A DNA stretch of 38,508 nucleotides, taken from a virus. Positions within the stretch are counted from its first letter, which is position 1, and each line of letters begins with the position of its first letter. The DNA lies in the IMG/VR virus record IMGVR_UViG_3300045988_070743, positions 1 through 38,508 of that record; one strand, given 5' to 3'. Positions 10,898 through 36,190 of this stretch are shown here, in pieces. The translations under genes and the position numbers were made by a program. The notes under the pieces are model-generated. The model did not search any database. It saw only the letters and a program-made list of their open reading frames with translations, and had not been told where the DNA came from.

Positions 10898-12640
10898 TTA
10901 TTTAAATAGTTTCGAAACCTTTTTTAATATTTTTAAAATCAAAGCGATAATACGATTGATTCCATTTACATTAATTTTATCATTTGAATCGCTTGTATCG
11001 TTTGAATCATCTTTTTTAGGATTGCTCAACTCATCTAAATATTGTGATACTAATAATTTAAAATCATCCCAACCTTCATCAAGAATCTTGTGTGGGCAAT
11101 ATTTATAATTACCACTTGTCATCTTGTAATCTTGGTGCTTTTTTAAGCAATCAATACTCAATCCATATTTATACAATAGCTCAGATGCAAGTCTTGCTCC
11201 ATTCTCTCTAGCTTTTTTCCATTCATCTTGTGAATCGTTATCATTATCCTTGGCGATTTCGATTTGGATACCTGTTCTATTACCAAATCCATATGCTCCA
11301 TCACCTGTTGCAAATGCATTACGATTCAATGGTAATGATTCAATGATGTCTTTATCATCCACCGAGAAATGCCAAGATTTATATTCCTTCGAATTGTGCA
11401 ATGCATTATTTAAAGCTCTAGCAGTTCCATTTGGTGTTGCCGAGTTATGGATGATAATCGCTTGAGGTTTATTCATTAAATAAGGGCATTTGTAAGGATA
11501 CAATCTCTTATTAATTAAATCAACGATAATACCGTCATGTTCAAGAACTTCATCAGTTTTATCCTTTCCTTCGTAATCTCCTTCATTAACCGATGTAAAT
11601 CCATTTGTATTTACAATGGGTTTCGAAGGGGTTGTGGGTGTTTCGGTAGGTGTTGTCGTTGGCTTTGAGTTGTTCGGAGCAGTAAATGTTGCCCACATTT
11701 GCGTTCTATCCTCTGTTGCAGATACGGCAACGAATACTTTTTTATCTCCGTCTTTGCCTACTACATATCTGTGCCCATTTCCTACATACTTCCAATAATA
11801 GCGAATTGAATCACCAGTGTTGTATGTTTTGCAAACATCACCTTTTGGCGAATCGTAACGTGCTCTCACACCGTCTACCGTGAATGTAGCGATACCATCT
11901 TCTTGTGTTAGGGTAATTGATTCGGTAGGTTTTTGTTCTTCAATAGAAGTAAATGTTGCCCACGGTTCTGTACCTTGCTCATTTCCATTCACTGCCACGA
12001 AATAACGATAGCTTGCACCATCTGCTTGATGTTCAACCCATGAAATATATCTGTGCCCATTTCCTACATATTTTTGCGTGTATTCTAGCTTTGCCCCTTT
12101 TTTCAATGTTTCTGCTACGATTCCATTTGGTGTATCTCTTCTTTTCTGAATGTCATACATTAATGTAGCATAAGCGTGTTCATCTATTAATTTAGATTCT
12201 ATATAATCGCTATTTTGAGTTTGATTTACTAAACATTTAGGTCTAAAGCCTGTATCATATGTGGCACTGTATGGAAATTTACATAAATTAAATGCTCCTC
12301 CTGCACCACCTTGATTTTGTCCTAAGAACCAACCATATTTTCCATCAATATCAGAATCAAAAATTGCAATATGCGAATATGGTGTAACTCCTGGCACTAC
12401 TTTGAACACGACAATATCACCGGGTTGATATACAGATACTTCAACACTGTTTTTCAAGATTCCATTTGTCTTTCTATATAGCCAAATGTCTTTAGCGTAT
12501 TTACTGACTGTACAACTAATTCTTGGGTATCCTAGTTTCTCATACCAATACATTGCACCATCCCAACATTGAGAGCCGTAAGCTCCATCAATGTCAATTC
12601 TTTTGCCTAATACAGCGTTTTTAAAACTTTGATAATCTAT
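10898..12640 (-). CDS. Modular peptidoglycan hydrolase (lysin): CHAP, 2x SH3b-like, Thr/Pro linker, amidase_2, amphipathic tail; probable ATA start
   Basis: CHAP motifs DIDGAYGSQCWDG (catalytic Cys) and YSHIAIF...GQNQ. Two SH3b-like repeats (...YVGNGHRY...WATFT). Amidase_2-like IIIHNSATP...WHFSVDD...YKYCPHKIL. The Cys lies upstream of the first ATG (12553). AGGAGG lies 9 nt upstream of ATA 12640-12638. Confidence 0.85.
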   Translation of the reverse strand: MDYQSFKNAVLGKRIDIDGAYGSQCWDGAMYWYEKLGYPRISCTVSKYAKDIWLYRKTNGILKNSVEVSVYQPGDIVVFKVVPGVTPYSHIAIFDSDIDGKYGWFLGQNQGGAGGAFNLCKFPYSATYDTGFRPKCLVNQTQNSDYIESKLIDEHAYATLMYDIQKRRDTPNGIVAETLKKGAKLEYTQKYVGNGHRYISWVEHQADGASYRYFVAVNGNEQGTEPWATFTSIEEQKPTESITLTQEDGIATFTVDGVRARYDSPKGDVCKTYNTGDSIRYYWKYVGNGHRYVVGKDGDKKVFVAVSATEDRTQMWATFTAPNNSKPTTTPTETPTTPSKPIVNTNGFTSVNEGDYEGKDKTDEVLEHDGIIVDLINKRLYPYKCPYLMNKPQAIIIHNSATPNGTARALNNALHNSKEYKSWHFSVDDKDIIESLPLNRNAFATGDGAYGFGNRTGIQIEIAKDNDNDSQDEWKKARENGARLASELLYKYGLSIDCLKKHQDYKMTSGNYKYCPHKILDEGWDDFKLLVSQYLDELSNPKKDDSNDTSDSNDKINVNGINRIIALILKILKKVSKLFK

Positions 12641-12665
12641 TAAAAAAAACCTCCTTTATATGCCA

Positions 12666-12674
12666 ATTATAGCA
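12666..12674 (-). promoter_or_regulatory. Extended -10 promoter TGCTATAAT directly upstream of the lysin SD
   Basis: Minus-sense TGCTATAAT, read as the reverse complement of attatagca. It is the same 9-mer as at 5267-5275. Confidence 0.4.
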
Positions 12675-12692
12675 CATAAAAGAGGTTTTTTA

Positions 12693-13130
12693 TCACTGGT
12701 ATACAGAGAACATTTCTCTTAATTTATCTCTTACCATTTCTCTTTCTTCTTGAAAGTCGCTAGACGTTTTCATTTCTTCTAAGATTCCATACATAGCACT
12801 TAAAAAGGCTTCTAACTCACGAATTGAATTTTGTTTATCTAGTTCATTGTTGCCTTTTCGATATTCTTTTTTAGCTTCTATGTATTTCCTAAAATGAGAA
12901 TTCATTAATGCGATATTATCATCAATTTCCGTTCCTTCAATATTTGTATCATTTGTTTTTAATGCGTTTATAGCAGTTCTTCCATCACTCATAGCTAGTA
13001 TTGTATCAATGTCTTTGATATTGTCTAAAGCTTGGCTCATGACTTTAAAATCTAAATCATTGTATCCTCTTTCTAATCCTCTCATCGCTTCCGTTAAGAG
13101 GTCTAGATTTCTTTTTCTAACCTCTTGCAT
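12693..13130 (-). CDS. Hypothetical helical protein (145 aa)
   Basis: ORF with TAGGTG upstream of the ATG. Last gene of the holin-lysin cargo block. Confidence 0.6.
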   Translation of the reverse strand: MQEVRKRNLDLLTEAMRGLERGYNDLDFKVMSQALDNIKDIDTILAMSDGRTAINALKTNDTNIEGTEIDDNIALMNSHFRKYIEAKKEYRKGNNELDKQNSIRELEAFLSAMYGILEEMKTSSDFQEEREMVRDKLREMFSVYQ

Positions 13131-13137
13131 GATACAC

Positions 13138-13557
13138 CTACGCTAACTTCTTAATGATGATATTTGCATTTTGAACAGATAAATCTAAGCCACTATTATT
13201 ACCTAGCGTAATTGTGTAAGACGCACCACAAGGTACTTGAATCAATGTAACTCCACTTACATTTCCATATGCGCTTGCAGTAGCTACATTATATAGAGAT
13301 TCTGTTCCTCCTACTGCTTCTCCATTCTGTTCTAATTCTAAAGAAGCAACTCCTACCGTTGTGCTTGTGATGTCTGCCGTATATTCTACTTCATAGATTC
13401 CTTGTTTCGTTAATGTAAACAGCCCACTTCCTACATCATGAGCGAGCCAACCTTTACATGCACATTGGCATGATTTTGTTCTTACTCTGTTTGTTGGGAA
13501 TAATACATTTTGTCCATTTGCTACTGTCTGAATTGACGTTGCTATACTATTAATCAT
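13138..13557 (-). CDS. BclA C-terminal domain-like (C1q/TNF-like jelly-roll) protein without a collagen stalk
   Basis: GLFTLTKQGIYEVEYTADIT, LELEQNGEAVGGTES and the C-terminal QNANIIIKKLA parallel the B. anthracis BclA C-terminal domain (...FYKITVIANTA, LTIQVNGVPVPGTGS, ...ASIIIEKVA) as I recall it. Confidence 0.6.
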   Translation of the reverse strand: MINSIATSIQTVANGQNVLFPTNRVRTKSCQCACKGWLAHDVGSGLFTLTKQGIYEVEYTADITSTTVGVASLELEQNGEAVGGTESLYNVATASAYGNVSGVTLIQVPCGASYTITLGNNSGLDLSVQNANIIIKKLA

Positions 13558-13573
13558 TTTCTTTTCCTCCTAT

Positions 13574-13604
13574 ATAAAATAAATGGGTAGCCTTTCGACT
13601 ACCC
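13574..13604 (-). terminator. Intrinsic terminator (GNRA-loop hairpin)
   Basis: Minus-sense GGGUAGUC-GAAA-GGCUACCC followed by AUUUAUUUUAU. Confidence 0.6.
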
Positions 13605-13639
13605 TATAATCCAAAGGCTATTGCCTAATCTCTTTCGAG

Positions 13640-15011: not shown

Positions 15012-15276
15012 AATTCTTGTCTAGATACGTTTCTTTTTCACTGCTTTTTCTTGGTGGTAAAACTGCGCTATACTTTTCTACTTCATCATACTTGTTCTTT
15101 ATTCTTTTGATGATTCTATTCACACTAGAAACACTCATATTTAATCTGTCAGCTTGTTCTCTGACTGTCCATCCGTATATTCTTGTTCTTAGAATCATTT
15201 CTTCATCTTTAGTTAATAAAGCTAGATTAATAAATTCTTCAAGAATAATCTTATTCCAAGGTACTTGATTCGTCAT
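15010..15276 (-). CDS. Small sigma-70 region-4-like HTH protein (88 aa)
   Basis: LTKDEEMILRTRIYGWTVREQADRLNMSVSSVNRIIKRIKNKY matches the region-4 HTH pattern. The start overlaps the holin 3' end by 26 nt. Confidence 0.55.
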   Translation of the reverse strand: MTNQVPWNKIILEEFINLALLTKDEEMILRTRIYGWTVREQADRLNMSVSSVNRIIKRIKNKYDEVEKYSAVLPPRKSSEKETYLDKN

Positions 15277-15766
15277 TGTCTTGTTCTTCGTTAATAAGTT
15301 TATCTGCTACTTCTAATCCTTTAGTTAATACTTTTGGTACATTGTAACCACATTGTAATAAATTCTCCATAACGCTACGAGATTCATTAATACATAGCGA
15401 AGCTAACACAAACCAACCTAGCAATGTAGACACATGGAAATCAATCCCTAGAATTTCTCCTACTTCTACTAAAAATGCACTGAATGTGAACGCAACCACA
15501 ATCATAATCCAATAGCCTAGCTTTTTTAAAACACCGGTCCAACCTTTGTTGCTATTGATTTTATGAGCAATAGCCGACTTCATGCACCCTGTAATATAAT
15601 CCACTACATTCATAAATAAGAAGAACGCAAATAAATACCAATGCTCGCCTAATACGTATGTTAATACGGCTACGGCAACACCACACATTGCATTAATCTT
15701 ATCTAGAAAAAACATACTTCTTGCTATTTGCTTAAATCCTCCATTTTTATTTTCTATTAAATTCAC
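15251..15766 (-). CDS. Holin (Phage_holin_4_1 / TcdE-like family)
   Basis: Multi-TM protein with VVDYITGCMKSAI and INESRSVMENL family motifs. The start is uncertain: GTG 15766 abuts the SD, and ATA 15757, ATA 15727 and ATG 15715 are all in frame. Confidence 0.75.
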   Translation of the reverse strand: MNLIENKNGGFKQIARSMFFLDKINAMCGVAVAVLTYVLGEHWYLFAFFLFMNVVDYITGCMKSAIAHKINSNKGWTGVLKKLGYWIMIVVAFTFSAFLVEVGEILGIDFHVSTLLGWFVLASLCINESRSVMENLLQCGYNVPKVLTKGLEVADKLINEEQDNDESSTLE

Positions 15767-16784: not shown

Positions 16785-17657
16785 CTATATACCTAAATAC
16801 CTTTCGTTGTAGTAAACAGTGCAAGCTAGGTTCGTATCTCCATTATCTGCCGTATATCCTATGATATTCTCACCTAAATTAATAGTCATATCATTGAATG
16901 ATGAAGTTCTATCAACTTTGCCAATACAATTCACGCCATTCTTCTTTATTGAAATAGGTTCAGAAACTAAATCGATTTCTAATACATCACCATTGTGTAA
17001 CGTATCTAATACACGAATATATTTATCTTTATTGAATAGTTTCGGATTTGTCACATCTCCAAATGCTTCAATGACGGCCCTGCAATATGTTTCTGTATCA
17101 CCTTGATTATCAATATAAATTTCTCTAGCGAATGTGAATGTTCCAAAGTTTACGCCTGTTTCCGGTATTTCGAAATTAAATGCTAAACCACCGCCGATTT
17201 CTGCAATATTCTTTGCAAAATCATCAAATGAAAGTAATAAAGGTTGCGTGCATAGAATCGTAAAATTAAGCTCTAAATCTTTGTAGATGTTAACAGTAGG
17301 CAAGCTATACGCATATAAACGACCTCTGCAATACTTCTTTTCTCCCATGTACTCAACTATCACATCAAATACATGAGAATATTGGAAGAAGCGCCGTAGC
17401 TTCTCCCTTTCTTCTCTTTTTTCTTCTAGTGAACCTTTAAAGATAGCTTTCACGCTTCTTTCTTTCGTTGGAATACGTGAACCGATTAATCTAGCACCAT
17501 TTCCAAATGCGTTGTCTTGCGTAGTGTATGAAGGTGCTACATAATCAAATCCATCTAAGCCATCATTTGAAGGAATCCTCCATCTTTTTTGGTTGTCAAT
17601 TTCAAATTCTGTGCCATCATCCCTACGGACAATAACTCTTACTTTATTGATATCTAT
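16785..17657 (-). CDS. Distal tail protein (Dit); probable ATA start
   Basis: The frame is open for 68 codons upstream of the first canonical start (GTG 17453), with no ATG, GTG or TTG. ATA 17657-17655 overlaps the TMP stop (ATAG), 7 nt after GGAGGTG. Confidence 0.7.
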   Translation of the reverse strand: MDINKVRVIVRRDDGTEFEIDNQKRWRIPSNDGLDGFDYVAPSYTTQDNAFGNGARLIGSRIPTKERSVKAIFKGSLEEKREEREKLRRFFQYSHVFDVIVEYMGEKKYCRGRLYAYSLPTVNIYKDLELNFTILCTQPLLLSFDDFAKNIAEIGGGLAFNFEIPETGVNFGTFTFAREIYIDNQGDTETYCRAVIEAFGDVTNPKLFNKDKYIRVLDTLHNGDVLEIDLVSEPISIKKNGVNCIGKVDRTSSFNDMTINLGENIIGYTADNGDTNLACTVYYNERYLGI

Positions 17658-20233
17658 TGAACTACACCTCCATATCCATATCTTGCTTGCATACGTAACA
17701 TTCTAGCGATTTCATCCGGACTTTGAGCTTTATTGTAGAAGTTGATAGTCTGTCCATTGTTATTCGTTGTAACACTAGGCATAATTTGGACCATATCTTT
17801 TGCTACGGCACGAATCCACGCTTTATTCTTTTCTAAAGGAACGACTGCTTCTGCTCCATTACCTTCTAACAATCCAATTTGACCGCGTTTCAATACACCA
17901 CCAAGCTCTAGTTTTGGAATCTTTCCAATGCTAACTCCGGGAATCTTATTGATGATACTGATTGCACCATTAATTCCACCGATAACACCATTTACCATTC
18001 CTTTTACACTTCCAACTAATGATTGCACTGCTCCTTCAATTCCATTGAATACACCACCTACAAAGCCTTTTAAACCGCTCCATGCATTCTGTATTCCATG
18101 TAGAACATTTGAAATCTTATTTCCTACTTTATCCATCACGATTTTTACTTTTGACCACACATCGTCAAATACATTTGAAATAGTATCTTTTACACCTGCG
18201 AAGCTAGAATCAATTATATCAATCACATTTTGTACAATATTTCCAATATTATCGAATACACCTTTGATAACATTCCATATGCTTTCAAATATGCTTGAAA
18301 TTGACTGGAATAAACCACTTGCAAATTGAATGATTGCAGATACTACCTCACTTATCTTGCCCCAAATATTCGTTGCAACAGTTACGATTAAAGACCAAAT
18401 ATTAGATATGATAGATGCAATGATTTGAACAATCGGCATGATGATAGACAATATTGTAGAAATTGCACTTCCAACATATGAAATCACCATACTAATGAAC
18501 GAAATGATTCCACTTACAACACTTCCAACTATCGAAAGAATAGATGTGATTACAGGAATTAATCCAACTATGTTTGAAATCACCATCTTTATAATCGCTA
18601 GGATAGGTGGACCAACCACGCTCAGAATCTTTTGTGCTTGGTTTACGATATTTTGAATAGCTTCAATAATCTTAGCTAATATATCTTTTGCAATAGGTTC
18701 AAGTGCAATCTTCATTTTGTCGATTGCGTCTTTTACCTTATCAAAAGCAGGAGCTAACACTTCAGAAACTTGGCTTGTGATTTTTGTGATTCCACTTGTA
18801 TCAATCTTACTTAATACATTTGAAATTACATCACCAACTTTAGCAAATCCTTGTTGAATACCTTGTATCGCTACTGTAATTAGTCCAATAATACCGGAAA
18901 GAATAGGAGTAATCGCTTCGCCTATTGGAGTAAATGAGTTTAAGAATGTACGCCCTAAGCCACTTAAAGCGTTCTTTAAACCACCATTTGCAATATCTTT
19001 AACCTTTTCCATTGCTCCTTGTACATCTTTATATTTATTCCCTACTGTCGTTAAGGACTGAATGAATCCGGCGTTGAAATCTTCTCCCATTGTACCGAAA
19101 GCCGTTGCAGATTTATTCAATTTTTCTTGTTCATTTGTAGTCTTTGAAATATCTTCTACAATCGCATTCACAACATCTTTTTGAGTTGCTCTTCCTTCTT
19201 GCCATGCCTTAAATACATCTTGTGTTTTGGTATCAAAACTATCTAAAGCTCCTTCAATAGTTCCATCAACTAACCTTGTGGTAACTTCGTTAATTGCGTC
19301 ATTTACTTTGTCAAGGTTATAAGCTCCACCGTCTAAACCATTCTGCATTAATTGGAAGTATTCTTCTGCCGAATATCCTGCTTGCTTGAATTTACCGGAG
19401 TATTCTGAAATGTTGTCGCCTAACTCATCTGATTTGTTTAAACCATTCTGAGCACCTGTAGCCATAAGGTCGAAAGCTTCTTGAGAAGTAATTCCGAACT
19501 GCTTCATTAATTGTTGAGCACCTCTAAGAGTTTCGTTCTCGTCCATGCCGAATGTGTCTCTTAATGTCAATAAATCCTCAGTTACATTCTTTAAATCAAC
19601 ATCGCTTATGCCTTGCATTTGTTGCTTGACACGTGCCATCATATCAGCAACATCTGAAACATCTGAGCCGAAATTATTAGACCAAACATCACGAGCAATG
19701 TTTTTAAATTTATTCATTTCATTGCTTGAAGCACCTGTTTGAGCTTGAAATTTAGCCATAGCGTCATCTAGCTCCACGGCTTGGTTAACACCTGTCTTAA
19801 TAGCTAGTGCCATACCTCCGATAGCTCCTGCTACGGCAGTAACGCCTACAACACCTCCTACGCCTAATCCTGTTAATGTTTCAGTGATTGCAGTAGCTTC
19901 CGGACTAATGTTCTGAATCTTTCCTAATAGTCCATCAAATCCACCTTGAATTGACTCTAATGCACTGTTTCCTACTTGCTTAAATACATCAAATTTAGAA
20001 CCTGTTTCTTGTGTTTCTGTTTGTGTATTCTTTTGCTCTTCGTTTAAATCTTTAAGTTTTTCTTTAATCTTCGGTGGTGCTTTTGAACCATCAGAACCTA
20101 GCTTATCAATCGCTTTTGAAGTTTCTTTAATAGCATTTGTAGCTCCACTTGTGACTACATGAACGGATTTCATTCCATTCTCTAGACCACTTGTATCAAT
20201 CTTTGTATCAAACTTTAATGTTCCGTCTGATAT
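17654..20233 (-). CDS. Tape measure protein; probable ATA start
   Basis: 859 aa with a Gly/Ala/Ile-rich repetitive TM-like core. The conserved-looking N-terminus GTLKFDTKIDTSGLENG lies upstream of the first ATG (20173). ATA 20233-20231 directly follows an in-frame TGA and GGAGGTGG. Confidence 0.8.
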   Translation of the reverse strand: MSDGTLKFDTKIDTSGLENGMKSVHVVTSGATNAIKETSKAIDKLGSDGSKAPPKIKEKLKDLNEEQKNTQTETQETGSKFDVFKQVGNSALESIQGGFDGLLGKIQNISPEATAITETLTGLGVGGVVGVTAVAGAIGGMALAIKTGVNQAVELDDAMAKFQAQTGASSNEMNKFKNIARDVWSNNFGSDVSDVADMMARVKQQMQGISDVDLKNVTEDLLTLRDTFGMDENETLRGAQQLMKQFGITSQEAFDLMATGAQNGLNKSDELGDNISEYSGKFKQAGYSAEEYFQLMQNGLDGGAYNLDKVNDAINEVTTRLVDGTIEGALDSFDTKTQDVFKAWQEGRATQKDVVNAIVEDISKTTNEQEKLNKSATAFGTMGEDFNAGFIQSLTTVGNKYKDVQGAMEKVKDIANGGLKNALSGLGRTFLNSFTPIGEAITPILSGIIGLITVAIQGIQQGFAKVGDVISNVLSKIDTSGITKITSQVSEVLAPAFDKVKDAIDKMKIALEPIAKDILAKIIEAIQNIVNQAQKILSVVGPPILAIIKMVISNIVGLIPVITSILSIVGSVVSGIISFISMVISYVGSAISTILSIIMPIVQIIASIISNIWSLIVTVATNIWGKISEVVSAIIQFASGLFQSISSIFESIWNVIKGVFDNIGNIVQNVIDIIDSSFAGVKDTISNVFDDVWSKVKIVMDKVGNKISNVLHGIQNAWSGLKGFVGGVFNGIEGAVQSLVGSVKGMVNGVIGGINGAISIINKIPGVSIGKIPKLELGGVLKRGQIGLLEGNGAEAVVPLEKNKAWIRAVAKDMVQIMPSVTTNNNGQTINFYNKAQSPDEIARMLRMQARYGYGGVVQ

Positions 20234-21192: not shown

Positions 21193-21699
21193 TTATACTT
21201 CTGATGTACCTTCTGTGAATGTCACTGTTCCATCTGCTACCTTTGCAGTACCAACACGAATATCGCTTGCAAAGTTAATATTGAAGTTGATTTTTGAATC
21301 GACACCGCTTAACGTGTCAAAGATTAATTTAGCGTCAACTTCCCATGCTCTATATCCTTTTGTTTTGTCTCCGTCAAACATGAACGCAATTAAAGCTTTT
21401 GTATTTACTTCTTCGTTGTTTGGCACGGATTTCATCATTTTTTCGTAAATATATTCGAAATCATCTTCGCCTTTAATCATTGTTAAATCTTGCGAAATTT
21501 GAGGTGAATAATTCTTTAATGATTCTGTTGGGTTCTTATCTGCGATAAAGTCATATGTTTCTGTTTCACTGTTAAACGAAATATCTAAAGTTGTAGACTT
21601 TTTAATTCGCTTATATCCTGTTCCCATTTCCAAGAACAAACCAATCATATACTTCTTGACTGTCTGTCCTACGCTTACTTCAGTTCCTTGAGTTGCTAT
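21193..21699 (-). CDS. Major tail (tube) protein; probable ATA start
   Basis: Position and size fit. The frame is open 17 codons upstream of ATG 21648. ATA 21699-21697 overlaps the upstream TAA (TAATA), 8 nt after GGAG. Confidence 0.6.
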   Translation of the reverse strand: MATQGTEVSVGQTVKKYMIGLFLEMGTGYKRIKKSTTLDISFNSETETYDFIADKNPTESLKNYSPQISQDLTMIKGEDDFEYIYEKMMKSVPNNEEVNTKALIAFMFDGDKTKGYRAWEVDAKLIFDTLSGVDSKINFNINFASDIRVGTAKVADGTVTFTEGTSEV

Positions 21700-22118
21700 T
21701 AATTAAGCTCCTTTCTGTATTTAATTTGAATAGTCAACGCATATACTGCTTGACTATCCTCATTTGTGTATAGATATAAACCACTTGAAACGGAAACATC
21801 ATCACAATATTTGTTTCCGTCTAGTTGTGGCAATTCTCCGTTTAAATTCTTTTCATCAATCCAATTTTCTAATTCTTCTAGAAAAACATTGTTGTCTTGC
21901 CTTTCTGATTCAATTTGTGTATTCCTACGTGCTAGAAACGTGTAGTATTCAGTACGCATTTGAGAGCCGTCAATGTATGTATCTACAATTGCGTTAGGTT
22001 CTTTATACAACGCATAAGAGATAGCTTGTTGCGCTAAAACATCCGTTTCAATACGTTCATCTATCTGTATATTTCCATAGCCATAAAGCCACTGAATCAA
22101 TGCTTTTGATACTGTCAT
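21699..22118 (-). CDS. Tail terminator / head-tail joining protein
   Basis: 139 aa directly upstream of the tube gene, with an ATGA overlap. Confidence 0.5.
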   Translation of the reverse strand: MTVSKALIQWLYGYGNIQIDERIETDVLAQQAISYALYKEPNAIVDTYIDGSQMRTEYYTFLARRNTQIESERQDNNVFLEELENWIDEKNLNGELPQLDGNKYCDDVSVSSGLYLYTNEDSQAVYALTIQIKYRKELN

Positions 22119-22471
22119 TCTCCGTCTCCTATCATCTGTTGTGCTTTCTTTAAGATTGTTTCTGCTCCACCATTTCGCATAGCTTTTTCAAACCAATGGT
22201 CTGTTTTTCCACCAACGAAATGAGCATTCTCTTTGTTGTAATACCACCGTCTAGCATATGGAGCACTTGGCCCACCTTGCTTTACTAATCCACTACCGAT
22301 TTGTGTTAATCGTGTAGCCGAGTTAATCAATGCTCCTGTGTCTCTAGGCGTATAGGGGGACATAAGCCTAATGACTTCAGAATCAATCATTTGTTGAACT
22401 CGTCCACGTTCTTCAAGTCCTCTTGATTGTTTAATTTGGGGAATTGATTCAACATCAAGTTTGACTTTCAT
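22115..22471 (-). CDS. HK97 gp10-family neck protein
   Basis: PRDTGALINS...YARRWYY pattern. The best start is ATG 22471. The track ORF extends to 22549, overlapping the upstream gene. Confidence 0.55.
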   Translation of the reverse strand: MKVKLDVESIPQIKQSRGLEERGRVQQMIDSEVIRLMSPYTPRDTGALINSATRLTQIGSGLVKQGGPSAPYARRWYYNKENAHFVGGKTDHWFEKAMRNGGAETILKKAQQMIGDGE

Positions 22472-22473
22472 TC

Positions 22474-22893
22474 CTATTGACCAACAACCTCCCAATGTTT
22501 CAACATATCGACATTCGTACAATCTGTTACGCTTTGAATCGTTGTCCATTTGTATTTCTTTTTAGCTTCATTTATTGCTTTAATACTAGATAAATCTTCT
22601 TCAACTTCTCCAAAGAATACAAAATCTGTCTTATCCGTATTTAACGTGAAATGCTTTTGCTTCTCATCATTTGAAAGTTTCGCATATGCGTAAGGTTCAA
22701 CATATCCCTCACGATATAGAATGGTAATATTTGTGGATGTTGCTATGCTCAGAATATTACCATTTGCGGTTCTAACGGTTGATTGTCTCCACATACATTT
22801 ATCAAGAATAGAAGCTTGAAACCTATCTTCTCTTGTCAATGTGTCATAGTAGTGATTAACAAGTGTAATTGAATCCTCAAAGAATCCTATCAT
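22474..22893 (-). CDS. Head closure / head-tail adaptor protein
   Basis: ATGA-coupled start at 22893. Assignment rests on its position in the connector cluster. Confidence 0.45.
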   Translation of the reverse strand: MIGFFEDSITLVNHYYDTLTREDRFQASILDKCMWRQSTVRTANGNILSIATSTNITILYREGYVEPYAYAKLSNDEKQKHFTLNTDKTDFVFFGEVEEDLSSIKAINEAKKKYKWTTIQSVTDCTNVDMLKHWEVVGQ

Positions 22894-23258: not shown

Positions 23259-23408
23259 CTATTTTTTCTTTTTATCTTGAGGTTTAGCTTCCTCTTTTTC
23301 TTCTGTGGGTTCTTCTTTTTCTTCTTCATTAACTGTAGGCTCGTTAACTTTTGGTTGTTCAACCTCTTTATTGATGGAAGGATAGCCCCATCCGATTTCC
23401 GTTGCCAT
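23259..23408 (-). CDS. Small acidic Glu/Lys/Pro-rich protein (49 aa), absent from the ORF track
   Basis: TAATG overlap with the capsid stop. Sequence is MATEIGWGYPSINKEVEQPKVNEPTVNEEEKEEPTEEKEEAKPQDKKKK. Confidence 0.45.
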   Translation of the reverse strand: MATEIGWGYPSINKEVEQPKVNEPTVNEEEKEEPTEEKEEAKPQDKKKK

Positions 23409-24277
23409 TACTTAGCACTAGCAGATAAGTAAATACCTGCTACCTTATTTGCGTATACATCAACGATTCCATACTTACGATATTTCAATACATCTGAATC
23501 TGATTCAATGTTATTGCTTGCCGGAATTACATTTGAAACGGTGTGTTTATCCCATTTCATAACGGCAGGCTTGTGAACAATTAAGAAGTTAATTGCGTGT
23601 CCATCTTCTGCCTTTTCGTATCCGCCTTCAAGCTCTGTATCTTTTCCACTCAACAATTTAATTTTTGTATAGAAACGTGTTGAAGGTACAGGAACAACTT
23701 TTGCGAATCCTTGTAAAGCTTCACGAGATTTGTAAGTGTCCAACGCCTTAACGCTATTTAATAATGTTGGTGTTGAATACAAGATACGTTGTTCGCTAGG
23801 AACTTCATCCTCATCCATTTTAGTGATAGCCGTTAATAATGCGCTCAAGAACTCTTCTGCACCTGTATAATCTTCTGCAACTGTTGTGATTCCTGTTGTG
23901 CCGGCAATTTTGGCGAATGTGTAAGCGTCTGCTTCCGGTGCTACCTTTGTACGCATTAATTCCGCTCCTGCCATACCGAACGCAATATTCATTGATTCTG
24001 CGTTATCCTGTGTATCAACTGAGATTTTAGTTCCTCGGTCATAGTCGAATGTAGCAGTTTTCCATTCTAATTTAACTGAGTTACCTGTATAACCACTGTT
24101 TCTATCGTAGTTTCCTAAACCCTTGACTGAAATTTGTGGATAGATGATTTCTTTTGCGTTCGCTCCTGCTCTAACCATTGTAGCGTCTGCGTTTAAATCA
24201 CCTGTAACTGAAGCTAACTTATATACCTCATCCAAATTTGAGACATACGTTTTAGCTAATGCAATTTGATTTGGTAT
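23408..24277 (-). CDS. Major capsid protein; probable ATA start
   Basis: 289 aa directly after the scaffold gene. AAGGAGG lies 9 nt upstream of ATA 24277-24275, with an in-frame TAA two codons upstream. The first canonical start (TTG 24235) has no SD. Confidence 0.7.
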   Translation of the reverse strand: MPNQIALAKTYVSNLDEVYKLASVTGDLNADATMVRAGANAKEIIYPQISVKGLGNYDRNSGYTGNSVKLEWKTATFDYDRGTKISVDTQDNAESMNIAFGMAGAELMRTKVAPEADAYTFAKIAGTTGITTVAEDYTGAEEFLSALLTAITKMDEDEVPSEQRILYSTPTLLNSVKALDTYKSREALQGFAKVVPVPSTRFYTKIKLLSGKDTELEGGYEKAEDGHAINFLIVHKPAVMKWDKHTVSNVIPASNNIESDSDVLKYRKYGIVDVYANKVAGIYLSASAK

Positions 24278-27834: not shown

Positions 27835-28443
27835 CTAACCCCACATTGTGTTTAAATCGTTTGTTGTAATCGCAGTTAATTCTGATTTCTTAACATATGC
27901 CGATAAATCAATGTCTGTATTACCAATCTTTTCAAATGTTTTGCTTTCTGATAACCAAATATATTCATTATAAATATCTTGTGTTCCGTGTGAATGTGCT
28001 ACCAAATAGATAACACCATTTGAACCTGTAGCAGGTAAGCTCGTTACCTTTTCATATCTAATAGATGTAATATTACCTACTGCCGAATTAATCAACGATT
28101 GTACTTGTGATTGCGTTTGATACCCTTTAGCCGTGATAATTGACTCAACGCTCGTCGCCGACTGATATCCACTGTCATTTGTTAATTGTGATGTCTTTGT
28201 AGGCACTGTAACATCCACGGCTTTTGAGCTTGGCGTTAATTTCGTACCATTTACCTTTACAGACTCAATCACATTCACTTGAGCACCACTTGCGATACCA
28301 CTTAATTTGTTTTTTTCTGCATTAGTATAGTCATTTGTCGATAAGCCTTTACCACTTACAACATTAACTTTCCCACCTAATTCAGATTTAATTTTACTGA
28401 TTAAGAGCGTCAATCCACTCTTATCTAAATATTCAATAGCTAT
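27835..28443 (-). CDS. Tail fibre repeat protein (GKGLSTNDYT...EKNKL motif); probable ATA start
   Basis: GGAGG lies 7 nt upstream of ATA 28443-28441. The N-terminal AIEYLDKSGLTLLISKIK lies upstream of the SD-less TTG 28413. Confidence 0.6.
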   Translation of the reverse strand: MAIEYLDKSGLTLLISKIKSELGGKVNVVSGKGLSTNDYTNAEKNKLSGIASGAQVNVIESVKVNGTKLTPSSKAVDVTVPTKTSQLTNDSGYQSATSVESIITAKGYQTQSQVQSLINSAVGNITSIRYEKVTSLPATGSNGVIYLVAHSHGTQDIYNEYIWLSESKTFEKIGNTDIDLSAYVKKSELTAITTNDLNTMWG

Positions 28444-28754: not shown

Positions 28755-29050
28755 GTAATCACTTCCTTATTCAATACTCTATATACCTTTGTTGTCTTGA
28801 CAGGAGAAGCAATAGCAACTCCTCCTTTTGTAATCATTCTTAATTGAATATTACAAGTACCCTCTTTGAAATTGAGCGTTTCTTCTTGACTTAACAACAC
28901 TGAAATAACATTTCCTTCAATGTCTAAATCACTTGATTCTTTTTTTAAGATATATCCGTTCTGTTCAAATACCACATAGATATTCTGCATTTCATTTAAA
29001 TCAATATCGTTTATTGTGATTTGAATTGTTGGCGTAGTTCCTTGTCTCAT
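28751..29050 (-). CDS. Fibre-associated protein (99 aa)
   Basis: ATGA-coupled ATG 29050. The track ORF extends to TTG 29071. Confidence 0.5.
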   Translation of the reverse strand: MRQGTTPTIQITINDIDLNEMQNIYVVFEQNGYILKKESSDLDIEGNVISVLLSQEETLNFKEGTCNIQLRMITKGGVAIASPVKTTKVYRVLNKEVIT

Positions 29051-29856
29051 GATTTCACCTTGTAAGTCCAATCTTTGCCTACTTCACCCGACTCAACTTC
29101 ATACGCCCAATCGGCTAGCATTTCATGACCGTTCTCATCTACCAGTGTTCCATCTTCTGTTAATAGAATCGTAGTGAAATGGTTATTCATAAGCATTTGT
29201 TCTACATTTGCAATTCGGTTCATTAACTTACCTGCGGTATTTGAATCCAACGTATCTTTTACGCTTGCGAACCATTCATTGAACTCTGTTCTATTTGCAT
29301 TCATTTCAGATTCATTCTGAGCTTTAATTTCCTTGAATAACTCAGTAACTTGAGTGAACAAATCCAATGATTGTACGCTCTTAATTGCGCTTGTAACTGC
29401 TCCGCAACGTGTAGAATCTAATCTTGTATCAGTAATATCTGAGCCTTTAACTTCACTTGAATTACCTGTGACCGTGACTGTAGCTAGTACTAAATCATAA
29501 ATAGAATCACTTCTTGTAATTCCACTGTTAATATCACTTGCAACTAATGTGATGTTTCTGTGTGCGTCATTATCATTCAGTCTAAGAATAATATTGTAGC
29601 TTTTGGTTGCGTTATTCTTTTCTAGTGTGATGGTTTCGTCATCCCTTTGCCAATAGAATGCTCCATTGATATTCGCTCGTCCTGCTTTAACTGTTAATGT
29701 TAAGCCTTGAGCTTTCTCGACTCTTAAATGGTCTGAACCGGAATCATCTACGAACACGCCATTTGTAAAGTAGCTTGAGAATAATCTTCTGAAAGCGTCA
29801 TATAATACTAATCTATCGCCATTTCTTGAGACGAATGGAAAATATGTTGTTGCTAT
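29047..29856 (-). CDS. Fibre/structural protein (269 aa); probable ATA start
   Basis: The frame is open 33 codons upstream of GTG 29757 (ATTYFPFVSRNGDRLVLYDAFRRLFSSYFTNGV), with an in-frame TGA 3 codons upstream. ATA 29856-29854 overlaps the portal TAG. Confidence 0.6.
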   Translation of the reverse strand: MATTYFPFVSRNGDRLVLYDAFRRLFSSYFTNGVFVDDSGSDHLRVEKAQGLTLTVKAGRANINGAFYWQRDDETITLEKNNATKSYNIILRLNDNDAHRNITLVASDINSGITRSDSIYDLVLATVTVTGNSSEVKGSDITDTRLDSTRCGAVTSAIKSVQSLDLFTQVTELFKEIKAQNESEMNANRTEFNEWFASVKDTLDSNTAGKLMNRIANVEQMLMNNHFTTILLTEDGTLVDENGHEMLADWAYEVESGEVGKDWTYKVKS

Positions 29857-31256
29857 TCTTCTTCATCCTCCTCTCCATCATCTTGAATTTCTTCATTTAA
29901 TAACTCAGTTGCTTCTTCTTCAGTAAAGCCGTATTGCTTCATAAAGTACATAATTTTCAATCTTGGAATATCAAATGTTAATGCGTCATTCCTTAACGCT
30001 TGTGCCGTGCTTTGCTTATCCTCGATATATGTATCGTCATAATCAATCGCAATGTCTAATGAATTGATATTAAGCTTTCTGCCTTGTGTCAATTCATAGA
30101 AGTATGCTATTGCTTGAATGATATCTTGAATATATGCAGTAGACTCTTTTCGTTGTGCATTCACTTCCTTCATTGCGTCTTGATTCTCACCGATATATTC
30201 GGTAGCAGTGACAATTCTTCCACTTTCAAAGGTGTATTTCTTTGTGCCAAATCCAAACATCATAGATAAGATACTTAATGCGGTTTCTAGTGATTGCACA
30301 ACTTCTTGTGTTCTAACTGTTGGATTGTATTCTTGCCATAACGCTTTTTCTTCCGGTAGTTTGTCTCTACCTAATTGAACGAAGATATTCTTTAATTGTG
30401 GATTCTGTTTAACCTTTCCATTCTTGTCTTTCTGCATTAACGCTTCATTTACAAGAACGATTTTATCTGATTTCAATAAATCTCGATTCCACATTGTCAT
30501 TGTCAAATCAATTGTTTTTAAAGGAGCGATTGCGCTCCAAATCTTTGGTAAGCCGTACCCTTGCATTTGTAAGTTGTTGACTTTTGCGTTTCTCATAATC
30601 GCAAACGGCTTGACCACATCTAATTGAACAATTTGAGCACGGTCTTTTATTTCTTCGCCTGTATCTTTGAAGTAATGTGTTTCTGCAATATATCTTTCGT
30701 CTTGTCCTTTTAAGAACATGACCATCACATATACTTTTTTTAATTTCTCATAATTTACTCCAACGAAAGCAACTTCCACAATTTCATCATTAATAACAGT
30801 TAGTGGAAGGATATTCATGGAATCACAATAATTAATTCTAATTTCTCCCCCACTGAATGTACCATCTTCATAAATCTCGGCATTTGATACCGTCACATAA
30901 GCTCCTACCGTACCATTTGCAGACATTTGCTCAACTTGTTTCCTATACATTACATCAAATCTATTCTTTGTTAGAATGTCTGAAATAATGTCATTTGTAG
31001 CACTGTCCTCTGTTGCGTTTATATCCAAGATTTCAATTAAGTTTGCATCATCTTCACACAAACGCTTTGCAAAGTCTGTCTTATCCAATGTATATTGCTC
31101 ATTATTTAATGTGTATGCCGTATGAAATTCTGTTTCGGTATTTGTGTACCACTTGTTGCACAATTCAATAATTTCAATTGCGTTTGTGTCTACATAATAC
31201 CCTCTATCGTTTAGGTAATTCTGAAACCACGGTCTACGTGTGTTAGATGTTTCTAT
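29853..31256 (-). CDS. Portal protein (SPP1 gp6-like); probable ATA start
   Basis: 467 aa directly after terL. TAAGGAGG lies 6 nt upstream of ATA 31256-31254. The first canonical start (TTG 31163) is 31 codons downstream with no SD. Confidence 0.75.
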   Translation of the reverse strand: METSNTRRPWFQNYLNDRGYYVDTNAIEIIELCNKWYTNTETEFHTAYTLNNEQYTLDKTDFAKRLCEDDANLIEILDINATEDSATNDIISDILTKNRFDVMYRKQVEQMSANGTVGAYVTVSNAEIYEDGTFSGGEIRINYCDSMNILPLTVINDEIVEVAFVGVNYEKLKKVYVMVMFLKGQDERYIAETHYFKDTGEEIKDRAQIVQLDVVKPFAIMRNAKVNNLQMQGYGLPKIWSAIAPLKTIDLTMTMWNRDLLKSDKIVLVNEALMQKDKNGKVKQNPQLKNIFVQLGRDKLPEEKALWQEYNPTVRTQEVVQSLETALSILSMMFGFGTKKYTFESGRIVTATEYIGENQDAMKEVNAQRKESTAYIQDIIQAIAYFYELTQGRKLNINSLDIAIDYDDTYIEDKQSTAQALRNDALTFDIPRLKIMYFMKQYGFTEEEATELLNEEIQDDGEEDEEE

Positions 31257-31259
31257 TTC

Positions 31260-32959: not shown

Positions 32960-33086
32960 ATTGATTCAATTGTTTTTTAAGCCTTTGCAATCTTTTTCTT
33001 AAATCTCTTTTTCTATATTCTGATGTCGTGTTTTCTAATTCTTCTTCAACGCTTTTCATTTGGCGTAAATATTCTTCTCTAGACAT
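32937..33086 (-). CDS. 49-aa basic coiled-coil ORF, absent from the ORF track
   Basis: MSREEYLRQMKSVEEELENTTSEYRKRDLRKRLQRLKKQLNQYDCYRGY. The ATG overlaps the radical-SAM gene 3' end. Confidence 0.45.
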   Translation of the reverse strand: MSREEYLRQMKSVEEELENTTSEYRKRDLRKRLQRLKKQLNQYDCYRGY

Positions 33087-34386: not shown

Positions 34387-34387
34387 C

Positions 34388-35149
34388 TTATATCCTCCAT
34401 TTCCTTTTCAACAATACTGTTCTATCTTTTTTTGTTACCATATCCGGATATTTCTTTACTAGGCGTCTAAGCCATAGTTCTTGTTCTCCTCTTTGGTATC
34501 TGTCATACATTCCGCCTTTTTCCTTTCCCATGTAAGATTTATTTGGCACAATGTTATTTACTCTAGCTATGATATACCCTTGCCTAATCATTCTTAGATT
34601 CAATTCATAATCCTCTAACATATCCCATTTCTCATCAAATTTGATTTCTTCACTTTTAATAACAAAACACAATCCACCTTGTACGAGTGTATTGAATGAA
34701 TATGTTTCACCTTTCTTAACATAGCTAGCTATATTCATATTATTGGTTGTGGGTAGACATCCCATGAAGTGAATATTGTTCTTTTGCATAAATGAGAATA
34801 CCTCATTAAATGTCTTATCCAACTCAGTGATTTTTTTCTGCGTTCCACATTTATTCCCTTGCTTTTCTTCCCATTTTCTAAAATCTCTGATGTCATCATC
34901 TAGTAAGATGATTTTTGCCCCATTTTCAAAATAATTTAGAATGTTATTTCTATTCGAAGCTACGTTATTCCCACGCCTAGTAATGATTTGAGCTTGACTC
35001 CCTAATTCTTCAACATAAGTTTTGAAATCATTTGAATCATTTAAGCTAATAACAATTCTTTCATCTTCAATCCCGCATTCTTTTAGTGCGTGATATGTTT
35101 TACATTTTGGTCTATGATAACTTGCTATTGCATAATAGATGTTATTCAT
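34388..35149 (-). CDS. GT-A fold glycosyltransferase-like protein
   Basis: N-terminal YYAIASYHRP strand and the IILLDDDI (DxD) motif. Confidence 0.5.
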   Translation of the reverse strand: MNNIYYAIASYHRPKCKTYHALKECGIEDERIVISLNDSNDFKTYVEELGSQAQIITRRGNNVASNRNNILNYFENGAKIILLDDDIRDFRKWEEKQGNKCGTQKKITELDKTFNEVFSFMQKNNIHFMGCLPTTNNMNIASYVKKGETYSFNTLVQGGLCFVIKSEEIKFDEKWDMLEDYELNLRMIRQGYIIARVNNIVPNKSYMGKEKGGMYDRYQRGEQELWLRRLVKKYPDMVTKKDRTVLLKRKWRI

Positions 35150-35723
35150 GCATTAATTCCTTGATGTCGTAGCACACTTTTAATTCAGTTACCTGTAAAA
35201 GTTTCTCTAAGAATAGTTGCTCTTCCTCTGTTTCATATGTAATGATTACACGTTGTTTTTTTAACATTTCTTCTGAATGTTCGCTAAATGCGTCCATAAG
35301 CTCGTTGTCATATCCTTCTGCTTCCATATCCTCAGTTAATGCACTAATTTCAAAATCGCCAAATCCGAAATCTCTCATGTCGATTCCGTCGATTTCTTCT
35401 AGCTCTTCCATTTCTGTTTTTAATGCGTCTAAATCCCACGAAGCTTTTTCTGCCGTTTTATTATCTGCAATTCTAAATGCTTTTACTTGCTCATCCGTTA
35501 AATCATCTGCAACCACACAAGGAACAGTTTCTAAGCCTAATTCTTGACTAGCTTTATATCGTGTATGACCTGCAACAATAACTCCATTTTTATCAATAAC
35601 AATAGGGACTTTGAAGCCGAATTCCTCAATAGAATTTTTAACAAATTTCACTGCTCCATCATTGATTCTAGGGTTATTCTCATAAGGTTTTAGCTCATTT
35701 AATCTTTTTTCAACAATATTCAT
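35142..35723 (-). CDS. ParB/sulfiredoxin-like nuclease-domain protein
   Basis: LKPYENNPRIND...PIVIDKNGVIVAGHTRYKAS motif. ATG 35723 follows GGAGGGG. The track ORF extends to 35747. Confidence 0.7.
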   Translation of the reverse strand: MNIVEKRLNELKPYENNPRINDGAVKFVKNSIEEFGFKVPIVIDKNGVIVAGHTRYKASQELGLETVPCVVADDLTDEQVKAFRIADNKTAEKASWDLDALKTEMEELEEIDGIDMRDFGFGDFEISALTEDMEAEGYDNELMDAFSEHSEEMLKKQRVIITYETEEEQLFLEKLLQVTELKVCYDIKELMHE

Positions 35724-35743
35724 TATTTCCCCTCCTTTTAAAC

Positions 35744-35989
35744 TCATAGAGCGTCATTTACATTTATACAAGTATTTGTATTCTTGATGTATTCATCACA
35801 GTATAATTCCTTTTTATCGCCGTTATACGTCACCTCATAGTAATTGTCTGTGCTTTGAGCACTAATTAATGCTTTATTGTTTTGAAGCACTCTAACCATC
35901 CATACAACGAACATTTCACTGATTGCAATATTTGGGTTTACTTGAAATACTGCATTCATTGCTAATTCTTGAAATTCTTTTGAACCCAT
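35744..35989 (-). CDS. Hypothetical protein (81 aa), first ORF after the tRNA
   Basis: GGAGG lies 5 nt upstream of the ATG. Confidence 0.6.
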   Translation of the reverse strand: MGSKEFQELAMNAVFQVNPNIAISEMFVVWMVRVLQNNKALISAQSTDNYYEVTYNGDKKELYCDEYIKNTNTCINVNDAL

Positions 35990-36004
35990 ATTCTCCTCCT
36001 TATT

Positions 36005-36032
36005 ATTAAAAGAACCGAGACAAATGCTCGGT
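36005..36032 (-). terminator. Intrinsic terminator downstream of the tRNA locus
   Basis: Minus-sense ACCGAG-CAUUUGU-CUCGGU followed by UCUUUUAAU. Confidence 0.6.
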
Positions 36033-36114
36033 AATATATCAAAGCCTAATTGTATGCCATTGTTGGTATTTAATATCTAATTTGGGAAGGACTTACTGAT
36101 AGGCTTTGTAATCA

Positions 36115-36190
36115 TGGTTGCAGGAGAAGGAATTGCACCATTCGACCTCTAGCTAATAAGACTAGTGAGCTACTACTGCTCTATCCTGCT
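36115..36190 (-). tRNA. tRNA-like gene, anticodon UAU (reads AUA), with initiator-type features
   Basis: 5'-AGCAGGAUAGAGCAGUAGUAGCUCACUAGUCUUAUUAGCUAGAGGUCGAAUGGUGCAAUUCCUUCUCCUGCAACCA-3'. Acceptor 2-7/66-71 is paired and 1:72 is an A.A mismatch. U8; D stem GAGC/GCUC; anticodon stem CUAGU/GCUAG; loop CU-UAU-UA. Variable loop AGGUC; T arm GAA(U)GG-UGCAAUU-CCUUC; A73; encoded CCA. Folded by hand only. Confidence 0.65.

Follow-up and report, generated by a model that had tools for sequence, protein, structure and literature searches.

A phage-encoded initiator-type tRNA(UAU) and its probable service at the ATA start codons of twelve phage genes

The window analysed here is the whole 38,508-nucleotide stretch of the virus record IMGVR_UViG_3300045988_070743 (IMG/VR, positions 1 to 38,508). 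It encodes an initiator-type tRNA with the anticodon UAU, and 12 of its genes appear to start with ATA. The original prediction held that the tRNA and the AUA-start genes form one system, and this is strongly supported by the ancestry of the tRNA and by the co-occurrence of the two in relatives. Judging from sequence comparison, a natural initiator tRNA(UAU), descended from bacterial tRNAfMet, probably serves the AUA starts of the 12 genes. We put the probability of this reading at about 75%.

The tRNA was identified by Rfam, by a covariance model and by its sequence:

36115..36190, minus strand: initiator-derived tRNA, anticodon UAU

It reads AGCAGGA UA GAGC AGUAGUA GCUC A CUAGU CUUAUUA GCUAG AGGUC GAA(U)GG UGCAAUU CCUUC UCCUGCA A CCA. 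Rfam family RF00005 matched positions 36118-36190 (minus strand) with 48 bits (E 2e-7; gathering threshold 29), and our own covariance model R1 matched 36115-36190, encoded CCA included, with 92 bits. ARAGORN reported no tRNA in the window. The anticodon loop CUUAUUA gives the anticodon UAU and a U at position 37, a position that is a purine in almost all tRNAs. Besides U37, the tRNA has an A1xA72 mismatch, G2:C71, C3:G70, A11:U24, G30:C40, A73 and the encoded CCA. In E. coli, formylation depends on G2:C71, C3:G70 and A73, a 1:72 mismatch disfavours EF-Tu binding, and the features of the acceptor end and the D-stem direct formylation and exclude the tRNA from elongation. Elongator tRNAs have Y11:R24 in the D-stem, whereas the D-stem GAGC/GCUC of the window tRNA carries the initiator-type A11:U24.

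These features were largely shared by the family, in which 15 distinct variants were compared. Position 1:72 was unpaired in 12 of the 15 and was the only systematically unpaired position; the formylation determinants G2:C71 and C3:G70 were invariant (15/15), and G30:C40 was present in 14. A11:U24 was imposed by the search pattern for the other variants and is informative only for the window, the relatives found by blastn and the phage Phabba (see below). The cloverleaf was paired in 95% of cells across the variants, compared with ~45% when the partners were slid. Eleven pairs had changed on both sides, and none of 500 shuffles attained the observed covariation score. In one variant of the window's sub-type, the anticodon stem alone showed three pairs with full compensation. 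The tRNA(UAU) is under structural selection.

The tRNA shares its variable loop (AGGUC) and its 3' end (GCAACCA) with tRNAfMet, and 31:39 is the sole difference between the commonest anticodon stem of the family and the stem of tRNAfMet. The top E. coli match was a tandem triple tRNA-Met cluster (78% identity over 99% of the query, four places per genome), which we take to be the metZWV initiator genes. The nearest cultured-phage sequences were all annotated as tRNA-Met. Every family member has the anticodon UAU and not the CAU of the tRNAfMet class. An identity as elongator tRNA-Ile(UAU) was ruled out by the 1:72 mismatch, the initiator-type D-stem and U37. By its sequence features, the phage tRNA(UAU) is thus assigned to descent from an initiator tRNA and not from a tRNA-Ile elongator.

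Three sub-types were distinguished:

Sub-type A (window): bulged T-stem, T-loop UGCAAUU, D-loop without GG, A at position 1
Sub-type B: canonical T-arm, GG in the D-loop, A at position 1
Sub-type C: classical bacterial C1xA72

The first three of the sub-type A features are probably why ARAGORN missed this sub-type. The T-stem bulge of sub-type A is one base long, and this base is variable (U/C/G). When sub-types A and B were compared (loci L085 and L097), G18->A occurred together with U55->G; these are both partners of the elbow tertiary pair, and the elbow change is possibly compensated.

The initiator-type pattern with the anticodon UAU was found in 42 stretches of the viral collection; the pattern search of the same collection gave no initiator-type tRNA with GAU or AAU. 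Among bacterial genomes, 5 of 185,579 species-representatives had the initiator(UAU) pattern. They were unrelated and high-GC, and no host prophage was among them. Some initiator-like tRNA(UAU) sequences are of an A37 type, in viral loci (L076, L077, L078/L086, L084 and L088) and in bacterial ones (L092-L096: Thermoleophilia, Terracidiphilus, Collinsella, Dehalococcoidia and Roseobacter). Several of these have C1xU72 or a paired 1:72, and they lie mostly on high-GC contigs. The tRNA-Met of Mycobacterium phage Phabba (L073, 301-375) has A1xC72, A11:U24 and the anticodon CAU, and its anticodon stem CUAGC/GCUAG is close to the CUAGU/GCUAG of the window. Initiator tRNAs that begin with A thus occur in phages beyond the clade of the window.

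ATA starts were accepted when a Shine–Dalgarno sequence (SD) of at least 5 nt was followed 6-11 nt downstream by an in-frame ATA and no usable ATG, GTG or TTG was present. This gave 12 genes, all on the minus strand, whose reading frames open at or near the stop of the preceding gene. The higher coordinate of each line is the first base of the ATA:

36540..36734, minus strand: 64-aa coiled-coil protein, upstream of the tRNA (aggaggtgaaattaATAg)
29853..31256, minus strand: portal, PHROG 533 (aaggaggtaagaaATAg)
29047..29856, minus strand: head protein, phrog_1220; the ATA overlaps the portal stop as ATAG
27835..28443, minus strand: gene of unknown function, phrog_24103 (aggaggaaaaagaATAg); profile match 4-195 from residue 4
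23408..24277, minus strand: major capsid protein, PHROG 422, aligned 3-288 to 3-294
22115..22477, minus strand: head-tail connector or minor head protein, phrog_556 (gggaggttgttggtcaATAg); the ATA overlaps the upstream stop as ATAG
21193..21699, minus strand: phrog_3099 gene in the position of, and probably encoding, the major tail protein (aaggagcttaattaATAg)
17654..20233, minus strand: tape measure, PHROG tape-measure families (aaggaggtggcaaattgaATA)
16785..17657, minus strand: distal tail protein Dit, PHROG 33 (ggaggtgtagttcaATAg); the ATA overlaps the tape-measure stop as ATAG
15251..15757, minus strand: holin, PHROG 199 (aaggagtgaatttaATAg and ggaggatttaagcaaATAg)
10898..12640, minus strand: endolysin with N-terminal CHAP-like and amidase domains, PHROG lysis families from residue 3-5 (aaaggaggttttttttaATAg)
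2825..3202, minus strand: RusA-like Holliday junction resolvase, outside the late block, PHROG 1682 from residue 2 (gggggaagaaaaATAaag)

The ATA was conserved in all 16 orthologues of the coiled-coil gene (66-95% protein identity), and additionally in L126 and L129. It was likewise found in 16/16 orthologues of the portal and of the head protein, and in ~40 relatives for the RusA-like gene. Orthologues of the gene starting at 28443 had ATA in six cases and ATG in two (L007 and L009). The phrog_3099 gene is conserved with its ATA in L012 and L173, and L173 also has ATA at the tape measure, Dit and the holin. The tape measure, with 20 codons from ATA to the first in-frame ATG, is the least certain of the set because its SD spacing is the longest. 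For Dit, 83 open codons precede the first canonical start. If the lysin started from the ATG at 12553 instead, it would lose the stretch GSQCWDG, presumably the catalytic-cysteine motif of CHAP.

ATA was the commonest triplet behind orphan SDs in the window (13, compared with 7 for the runner-up). Most phage genes start with ATG. As the original prediction had stated, genes neighbouring the ATA genes use ATG; GTG and TTG are used as well. All open reading frames (ORFs) are intact under table 11, and the departure is confined to the initiation codons. An ATA at 32902 behind AGGAGG, within terS, was rejected as a start: relatives vary between ATA and GTA, and the base at -1 varies, as for an ordinary internal codon. 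At five places (31254-31262, 29853-29856, 22474-22477, 21697-21701 and 17654-17657, minus strand), the ATA abuts or overlaps the upstream stop as ATAG or TAATA. This is the ATA counterpart of the familiar ATGA overlap and suggests translational coupling. The holin ORF has two SD-led ATA sites (15757 and 15727), 10 codons apart and each with A at -1 and G at +4, which could be the dual start of a holin/antiholin pair.

The comparison with orthologues indicates that these ATA codons are the start positions of the genes. Profile alignments reached the N-termini: residue 3 to profile position 3 for the capsid, 3 to 8 of phrog_1220 for the head protein, 4 to 4 for the gene at 28443 and 3 to 6 for the lysin; the RusA-like alignment begins at residue 2. 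For five genes (capsid, lysin, RusA-like, 28443 and 22477), ATA matches the ATG of orthologues codon for codon. Capsid orthologues of Eggerthella phage PMBT5, MT835795 and Ruminococcus phage RG-TP1 begin with ATG-GCx-AAC (M-A-N). A large sister clade has M-P-N-x-I at the capsid N-terminus, where the window has I-P-N-Q-I and L101 has I-A-N-S-I. The lysin begins M-TYEQFKN (ATG) in a Holdemanella prophage and I-DYQSFKN (ATA) in the window, at the same codon. The tRNA-less loci L015 and L020 carry ATG at the ATA codon of the window's RusA-like gene, and the orthologue of 22477 has ATG in L171 (ggaggtgacggctaaATG) and ATA in L101 (gaaggtgactgctaaATA). The reverse was also seen: the window gene at 14251 starts with ATG and its L173 counterpart with ATA, the context being the same apart from this.

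ATA is not among the starts that standard gene callers accept, and the capsid, portal, lysin and other proteins are therefore mis-annotated in public databases. The public capsid cluster of the clade (1224 members) is 275 aa long and 14 residues short, and other capsid entries are 33 residues short. Database lysins are either cut to 551 aa or extended back through their own -10 box and SD as MCYNRHIRRIFL-IDYQ....

It is barely conceivable that the ATA codons are sequencing or assembly errors of ATG (e.g. at modified guanines) or that the tRNA is a pseudogene. A ParB-like/glycosyltransferase/radical-SAM module does adjoin the tRNA, and ARAGORN rejects the tRNA. However, the same ATA starts and tRNA occurred in more than 100 independent contigs from many samples (IMG/VR, ENA and Logan), and record names of the NODE_ and k141_ types point to many SPAdes or MEGAHIT assemblies. 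A total of 259 internal ATG codons and ~45 ATG starts were unaffected. L129 and L126, which have no modification module, still have ATA starts, and the compensatory changes described above mean that the tRNA is under selection.

One set of relatives was fetched with the radical-SAM protein (33079-34386) as the query. The survey of relatives named in the original prediction found tRNA and ATA starts present together and missing together. Every tRNA-bearing locus had ATA starts, which covers all three sub-types and more than 100 human-gut contigs. In the sub-type C locus L101, at ~67% nucleotide identity, ATA stands at the portal-sized ORF (aaggaggtaagtgaATAg), at the capsid-sized ORF and at two others. 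The L173 sub-clade had 10 ATA starts in 20.8 kb; this locus stops short of the tRNA position.

Among radical-SAM relatives with 61-83% identity, no tRNA(UAU) was found by blastn, ARAGORN or Rfam. Candidate ATA starts in these tRNA-less relatives were rejected: nearly all were an ATA directly before a real ATG or GTG, and four isolated others look like chance. The complete genome of PMBT5 had no tRNA and used ATG; RG-TP1 had tRNA-Asn only and also used ATG. The sister clade, whose capsid is ~69% identical, had no ATA starts in ~20 kb of late genes. Eighty control loci of the sister-clade group (1.38 Mb) gave 5 background ATA and 1056 SD-led canonical starts (~0.5%), and in the same loci no tRNA(UAU) was found by ARAGORN, pattern search or covariance model. 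The same detector gave 12 ATA and 24 canonical starts in the window (Fisher's test against the control: p ~1e-15). For the window or L173 against the control, p ranged from ~1e-12 to 1e-15.

Weak covariance-model matches in three control loci were rejected as a different tRNA-like fragment with the loop CUAACUA. The element (L188 8236-8308, L189 13740-13812 and L203 14161-14233, minus strand) has an incomplete acceptor stem, lies on the strand opposite to the late genes and is possibly an attachment-site tRNA fragment. In L023, a rumen phage related via the radical-SAM gene, ARAGORN found a tRNA with a four-base anticodon (ctgg) at 4744-4814 (Rfam 44 bits), adjoining tRNA-Trp and tRNA-Gln.

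The tRNA-bearing loci showed specificity for ATA. A scan for SD-led starts gave no ATT, ATC or CTG starts in these loci. When start ATAs were aligned (n=21), 20 were ATA and one was ATG; internal ATAs were kept in only 21-54% and drifted to ATT, ATC or GTA. Internal ATA made up 17% of the isoleucine codons (14.6% in late genes), while the A-ending share in other codon families was 47-69%. As internal AUA is avoided, there is no elongation demand for the phage tRNA to supply. We also checked the bases around the start codon. An A at -1 was found in all 18 ATA-start gene families and in 23 of 51 canonical starts (p = 1e-5), and G at +4 was enriched (12/18 and 11/51, respectively). The invariant A(-1) is complementary to U37 of the tRNA. 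Position 37 pairs with mRNA position -1 in tRNAfMet, the A37U variant included, and the A37 of the normal initiator favours U at -1 (PMC10018350). Hence, U37 and A(-1) look co-adapted at the level of sequence.

The ATA codons could instead be ordinary weak near-cognate starts that are read by the host initiator(CAU) with the aid of strong SDs and coupling and that tune protein ratios; the tRNA would then be unrelated (e.g. a relic, or a helper in AUA decoding). In S. aureus, an AUA start behind an extended SD attains 10-30% of the AUG level with no special tRNA (bioRxiv 10.1101/2025.06.19.660503). The original prediction's claim that the host initiator alone would translate such genes poorly is thus plausible, but not in an absolute sense. 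A strong SD stands before all ATA starts, several of them overlap the upstream stop, and ATA and ATG interchange among close relatives, so replacing ATA is not lethal. What weak starts do not account for is the use of ATA only and never of ATT, ATC or CTG, which are comparably weak for the CAU initiator. Nor would they explain why 12 genes are affected, the most abundant virion protein included, while tRNA-less related phages stay at the ~0.5% background. The initiator type of the tRNA with its 1:72 mismatch, the avoidance of internal AUA by the phage and an invariant A(-1) that fits the phage U37, not the A37 of a normal initiator, also speak against this explanation. We consider it unlikely as a whole; reading by the host initiator is possible as a partial contribution.

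Quite unlikely, in our view, is that the tRNA is primarily a back-up or nuclease-resistant initiator which replaces a host initiator depleted or cleaved by, for example, a tRNA-targeting defence or toxin, and which reads AUG by U.G wobble, the ATA starts being secondary. The anticodon loop departs from that of tRNAfMet at positions 34 and 37, ATG still starts most phage genes, and phage tRNAs with altered anticodon loops reportedly evade anticodon nucleases (eLife 2023, PMC10264068). This leaves unexplained the upkeep of ATA at the starts (20/21) while internal ATAs drift, as well as the invariant A(-1); no nuclease or defence context was identified. A back-up role is compatible with service at the AUA starts and would add a reason for it.

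For initiator tRNA(UAU) serving the AUA starts, the following route is proposed. In a phage-encoded descendant of tRNAfMet, the anticodon would have changed from CAU to UAU, giving perfect P-site pairing with AUA. Twelve genes, among them those for the portal, capsid, tape measure, Dit, holin and endolysin, would have swapped AUG for AUA behind strong SDs. By analogy with engineered anticodon-mutant initiators, the tRNA would be charged according to its anticodon, probably with isoleucine by isoleucyl-tRNA synthetase (IleRS). The host formyltransferase would be expected to formylate it because of its acceptor end, following the tRNAfMet rules. IF2 would deliver it to the P site, and IF3 would accept it because codon and anticodon are complementary. 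A four-base A-AUA:UAU-U interaction via U37 and A(-1) would strengthen the all-A/U helix. In engineered initiators, the new anticodon determines the charging; these tRNAs are formylated by the host formyltransferase and start translation at the matching codon (bioRxiv 10.64898/2025.12.21.695813). In M. mobile and B. subtilis, IleRS reportedly accepts tRNAs with the anticodon UAU (PMC3575796, PMC3919564).

Several points weigh against this reading. The 3GC motif (29:41, 30:40, 31:39) is incomplete: the window has A:U / G:C / U.G, and most variants have G:C / G:C / U.G. The U.G at 31:39 of the window is in Y:R orientation, unlike the natural au/GC/gu variants. In E. coli, however, G30:C40 is the pair that is both needed and enough by itself, and initiators of the au/GC/gu type occur in nature (Shetty 2017, PMC5389676). 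With its T-stem bulge, UGCAAUU loop and D-loop without GG, the sub-type A tRNA could be partly crippled. Charging is uncertain, since U37 removes t6A37, which is an identity element for E. coli IleRS. Sub-types A, B and C belong to one phage lineage, and the association may thus go back to a single evolutionary origin and have been maintained ever since. The A37-type initiator-like tRNA(UAU) sequences had no ATA starts in the few kb around them. Finally, given the efficiency of AUA starts in S. aureus, the ATA genes might not depend on the phage tRNA.

The original prediction went further and proposed that late structural and lysis genes are under a translational lock. We regard an orthogonal initiation channel, in which virion and lysis gene expression depends on the phage tRNA and the A-AUA signal acts as a lock or timer insulated from the host initiator pool, as a tentative extension that is somewhat more doubtful than probable. 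In this extension, U37 would have co-evolved with the invariant A(-1), and the channel would be for start codons what recoding of stop codons is in other phages. Temporal gating of the late genes by such a lock is conjecture. Its appeal is that the ATA set includes holin, lysin, capsid and portal. By position, the set is mostly but not wholly late: 10 of the 12 starts lie in the packaging-to-lysis block, and those of the RusA-like gene (3202) and the coiled-coil gene (36734) lie upstream of that block. On the circular map, the RusA-like gene precedes the tRNA by ~5-6 kb. These two ATA genes in the early/middle region and the apparent housekeeping-type promoter box of the tRNA count against a lock. 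The lysin was correctly described as having its own extended -10 promoter yet an ATA start: the box precedes the SD AAGGAGG and then the ATA at 12640. The surroundings of lysin and tRNA contain these features:

12666..12674, minus strand: extended -10 promoter-like box TGCTATAAT, upstream of the lysin SD
36217..36543, minus strand: small protein with ATG start, immediately upstream of the tRNA (Pfam Sigma70_r4, E 0.008; NCBIfam sigma ShbA, E 4e-4)
36208..36231, minus strand: terminator-like hairpin GTGCTCACA-TGTGAGCA followed by TTTTTT, behind the sigma-like gene and shortly before the tRNA, conserved in relatives
36197..36205, minus strand: extended -10-like box TGTAATAAT, ending 6 nt ahead of tRNA position 1
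36014..36032, minus strand: terminator-like hairpin ACCGAGCATTTGTCTCGGT with a T-run, downstream of the tRNA

The box TGTAATAAT is a putative sigma-A-like promoter of the tRNA itself. TGnNATAAT is kept in sub-types A and B, and sub-type C has TATAAT 18 nt upstream of the tRNA. Sub-types A and B both keep the downstream hairpin, and sub-type C has an analogous one. By this layout, the tRNA is predicted to be a stand-alone unit with its own promoter-like box between two terminator-like hairpins. The sigma-70 region-4 matches of the small upstream protein are weak; it is a candidate late-gene regulator.

The genome is that of a temperate, siphovirus-like phage of 38.5 kb with 31-36% G+C, and nearly all genes are on the minus strand. 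The window is circularly permuted: relatives have a sequence in which window 5907->1565 runs on into window 37321->. Other features are as follows:

6946->1, then 38508->36747, minus strand: early and replication genes, first in transcription order
36747-37229: SSB, at the end of the early/replication block
Directly after the tRNA in transcription order: DUF6275 gene, before the module of the next line
33079-35723, minus strand: ParB_N-like protein, TET-associated glycosyltransferase (PF20691) and PA0069/Rv2578c-type radical SAM protein, downstream of the tRNA
32594-32959: terS (Pfam/NCBIfam)
31260-32597: terL (Pfam/NCBIfam)
8313-9440: integrase
7063-7464, plus strand: divergent helix-turn-helix repressor

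After terS and terL, the late order is portal, head genes, scaffold, major capsid, connectors, tail, tape measure, Dit, minor tail, holin and endolysin; the integrase and the divergent repressor come last. The module at 33079-35723 is probably a DNA-modification module. It is missing from some relatives (L129 and L126), and L173 has a QueT gene in its place. The 435-aa protein at 33079-34386 was rejected as TerL; Pfam and NCBIfam identify it as a PA0069/Rv2578c-type radical SAM protein.

The related contigs came from human-gut metagenomes. Holdemanella or another member of the Erysipelotrichaceae is a plausible host, because an endolysin 78% identical to that of the window sits in a prophage on a 2.5-Mb Holdemanella chromosome (L257, GCA_964261755.1). 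This prophage has another tail type; its lysin is ATG-started, and its neighbours are two transposases and dprA, topA, trmFO, xerC and rpsB. The late region had no megablast match among GenBank phages, an exact look-up of the integrase gave no match, and the portal as a single-protein query brought back only relatives at 95-99%.

In the open-access literature, where absence is not proof, neither a natural initiator tRNA(UAU) nor an ATA-start phage system was found; what was found were engineered counterparts and weak host-read AUA starts. Natural initiator tRNAs that combine a non-CAU anticodon with reassigned start codons are not known to us. If confirmed, it would be the first natural non-CAU initiator tRNA matched to reassigned start codons, i.e. 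a virus-encoded private start signal, and start-codon identity would be re-wirable in nature, as with stop codons. It would also reveal a novel way in which phages control their late genes and lysis, and would offer synthetic biology and phage biocontainment an evolution-tested orthogonal initiation pair with a fourth base pair between 37 and -1. In practical terms, the capsid, portal, lysin and other proteins of an abundant gut phage group are mis-annotated (truncated or spuriously extended), and the commonest form of the tRNA escapes ARAGORN.

Compared with known systems, the phage tRNA is closest in body to bacterial tRNAfMet of the E. coli metZWV/metY type. It shares 78% identity, the 1:72 mismatch, G2:C71, C3:G70, A73-CCA, A11:U24, AGGUC and G30:C40. 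It differs in being phage-encoded, in UAU and U37, in the altered pairs flanking G30:C40 and in A1 (sub-types A and B); sub-type A additionally has a bulged T-stem and a non-canonical elbow.

Stop-codon recoding with phage suppressor tRNAs was reportedly described for crAss-like, Lak and other gut phages (Ivanova 2014, Borges 2022, Peters 2022). There, too, a phage tRNA alters the reading of one codon, which is concentrated in structural and lysis genes, and a lock has been proposed. As in such code switches, the phage tRNA(UAU) is cognate to codons, the AUA starts, that the host reads differently or poorly. In recoding, however, a stop codon is reassigned in elongation, whereas here a start codon and an initiator tRNA are involved and no meaning changes inside genes.

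Engineered initiators (amber tRNA-CUA; i-tRNA-AAC/GAC) combine an initiator body with a new anticodon and a complementary non-AUG start, just as the phage tRNA does. The amber initiator is reported to have been used for phage biocontainment (preprint 10.1101/2024.07.29.605542). Unlike these laboratory constructs, the phage tRNA is natural, is fixed in a lineage, is matched by ~12 starts per genome and shows an apparent co-adaptation of 37 and -1.

Host-read AUA and AUU starts (infC; S. aureus ccpN and citZ) resemble the phage starts in having AUA behind an extended SD. They are isolated, inefficient and regulatory and have no dedicated tRNA, whereas the phage has 12 per 38-kb genome, the capsid included, with ATA only and a cognate tRNA. 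Elongator tRNA-Ile(UAU) also reads AUA with UAU, in Mycoplasma mobile and in a tilS-bypass suppressor of B. subtilis (PMC3575796, PMC3919564). In those elongators, 1:72 is paired and the body is that of tRNA-Ile; the phage tRNA combines an initiator body with the 1:72 mismatch and U37, and internal AUA is avoided. Mitochondria, finally, use AUA as a genuine initiation codon (PMC11775629). They have one tRNA-Met with a modified C34 that reads AUG and AUA in initiation and elongation, whereas the phage encodes a separate UAU initiator beside that of its host.

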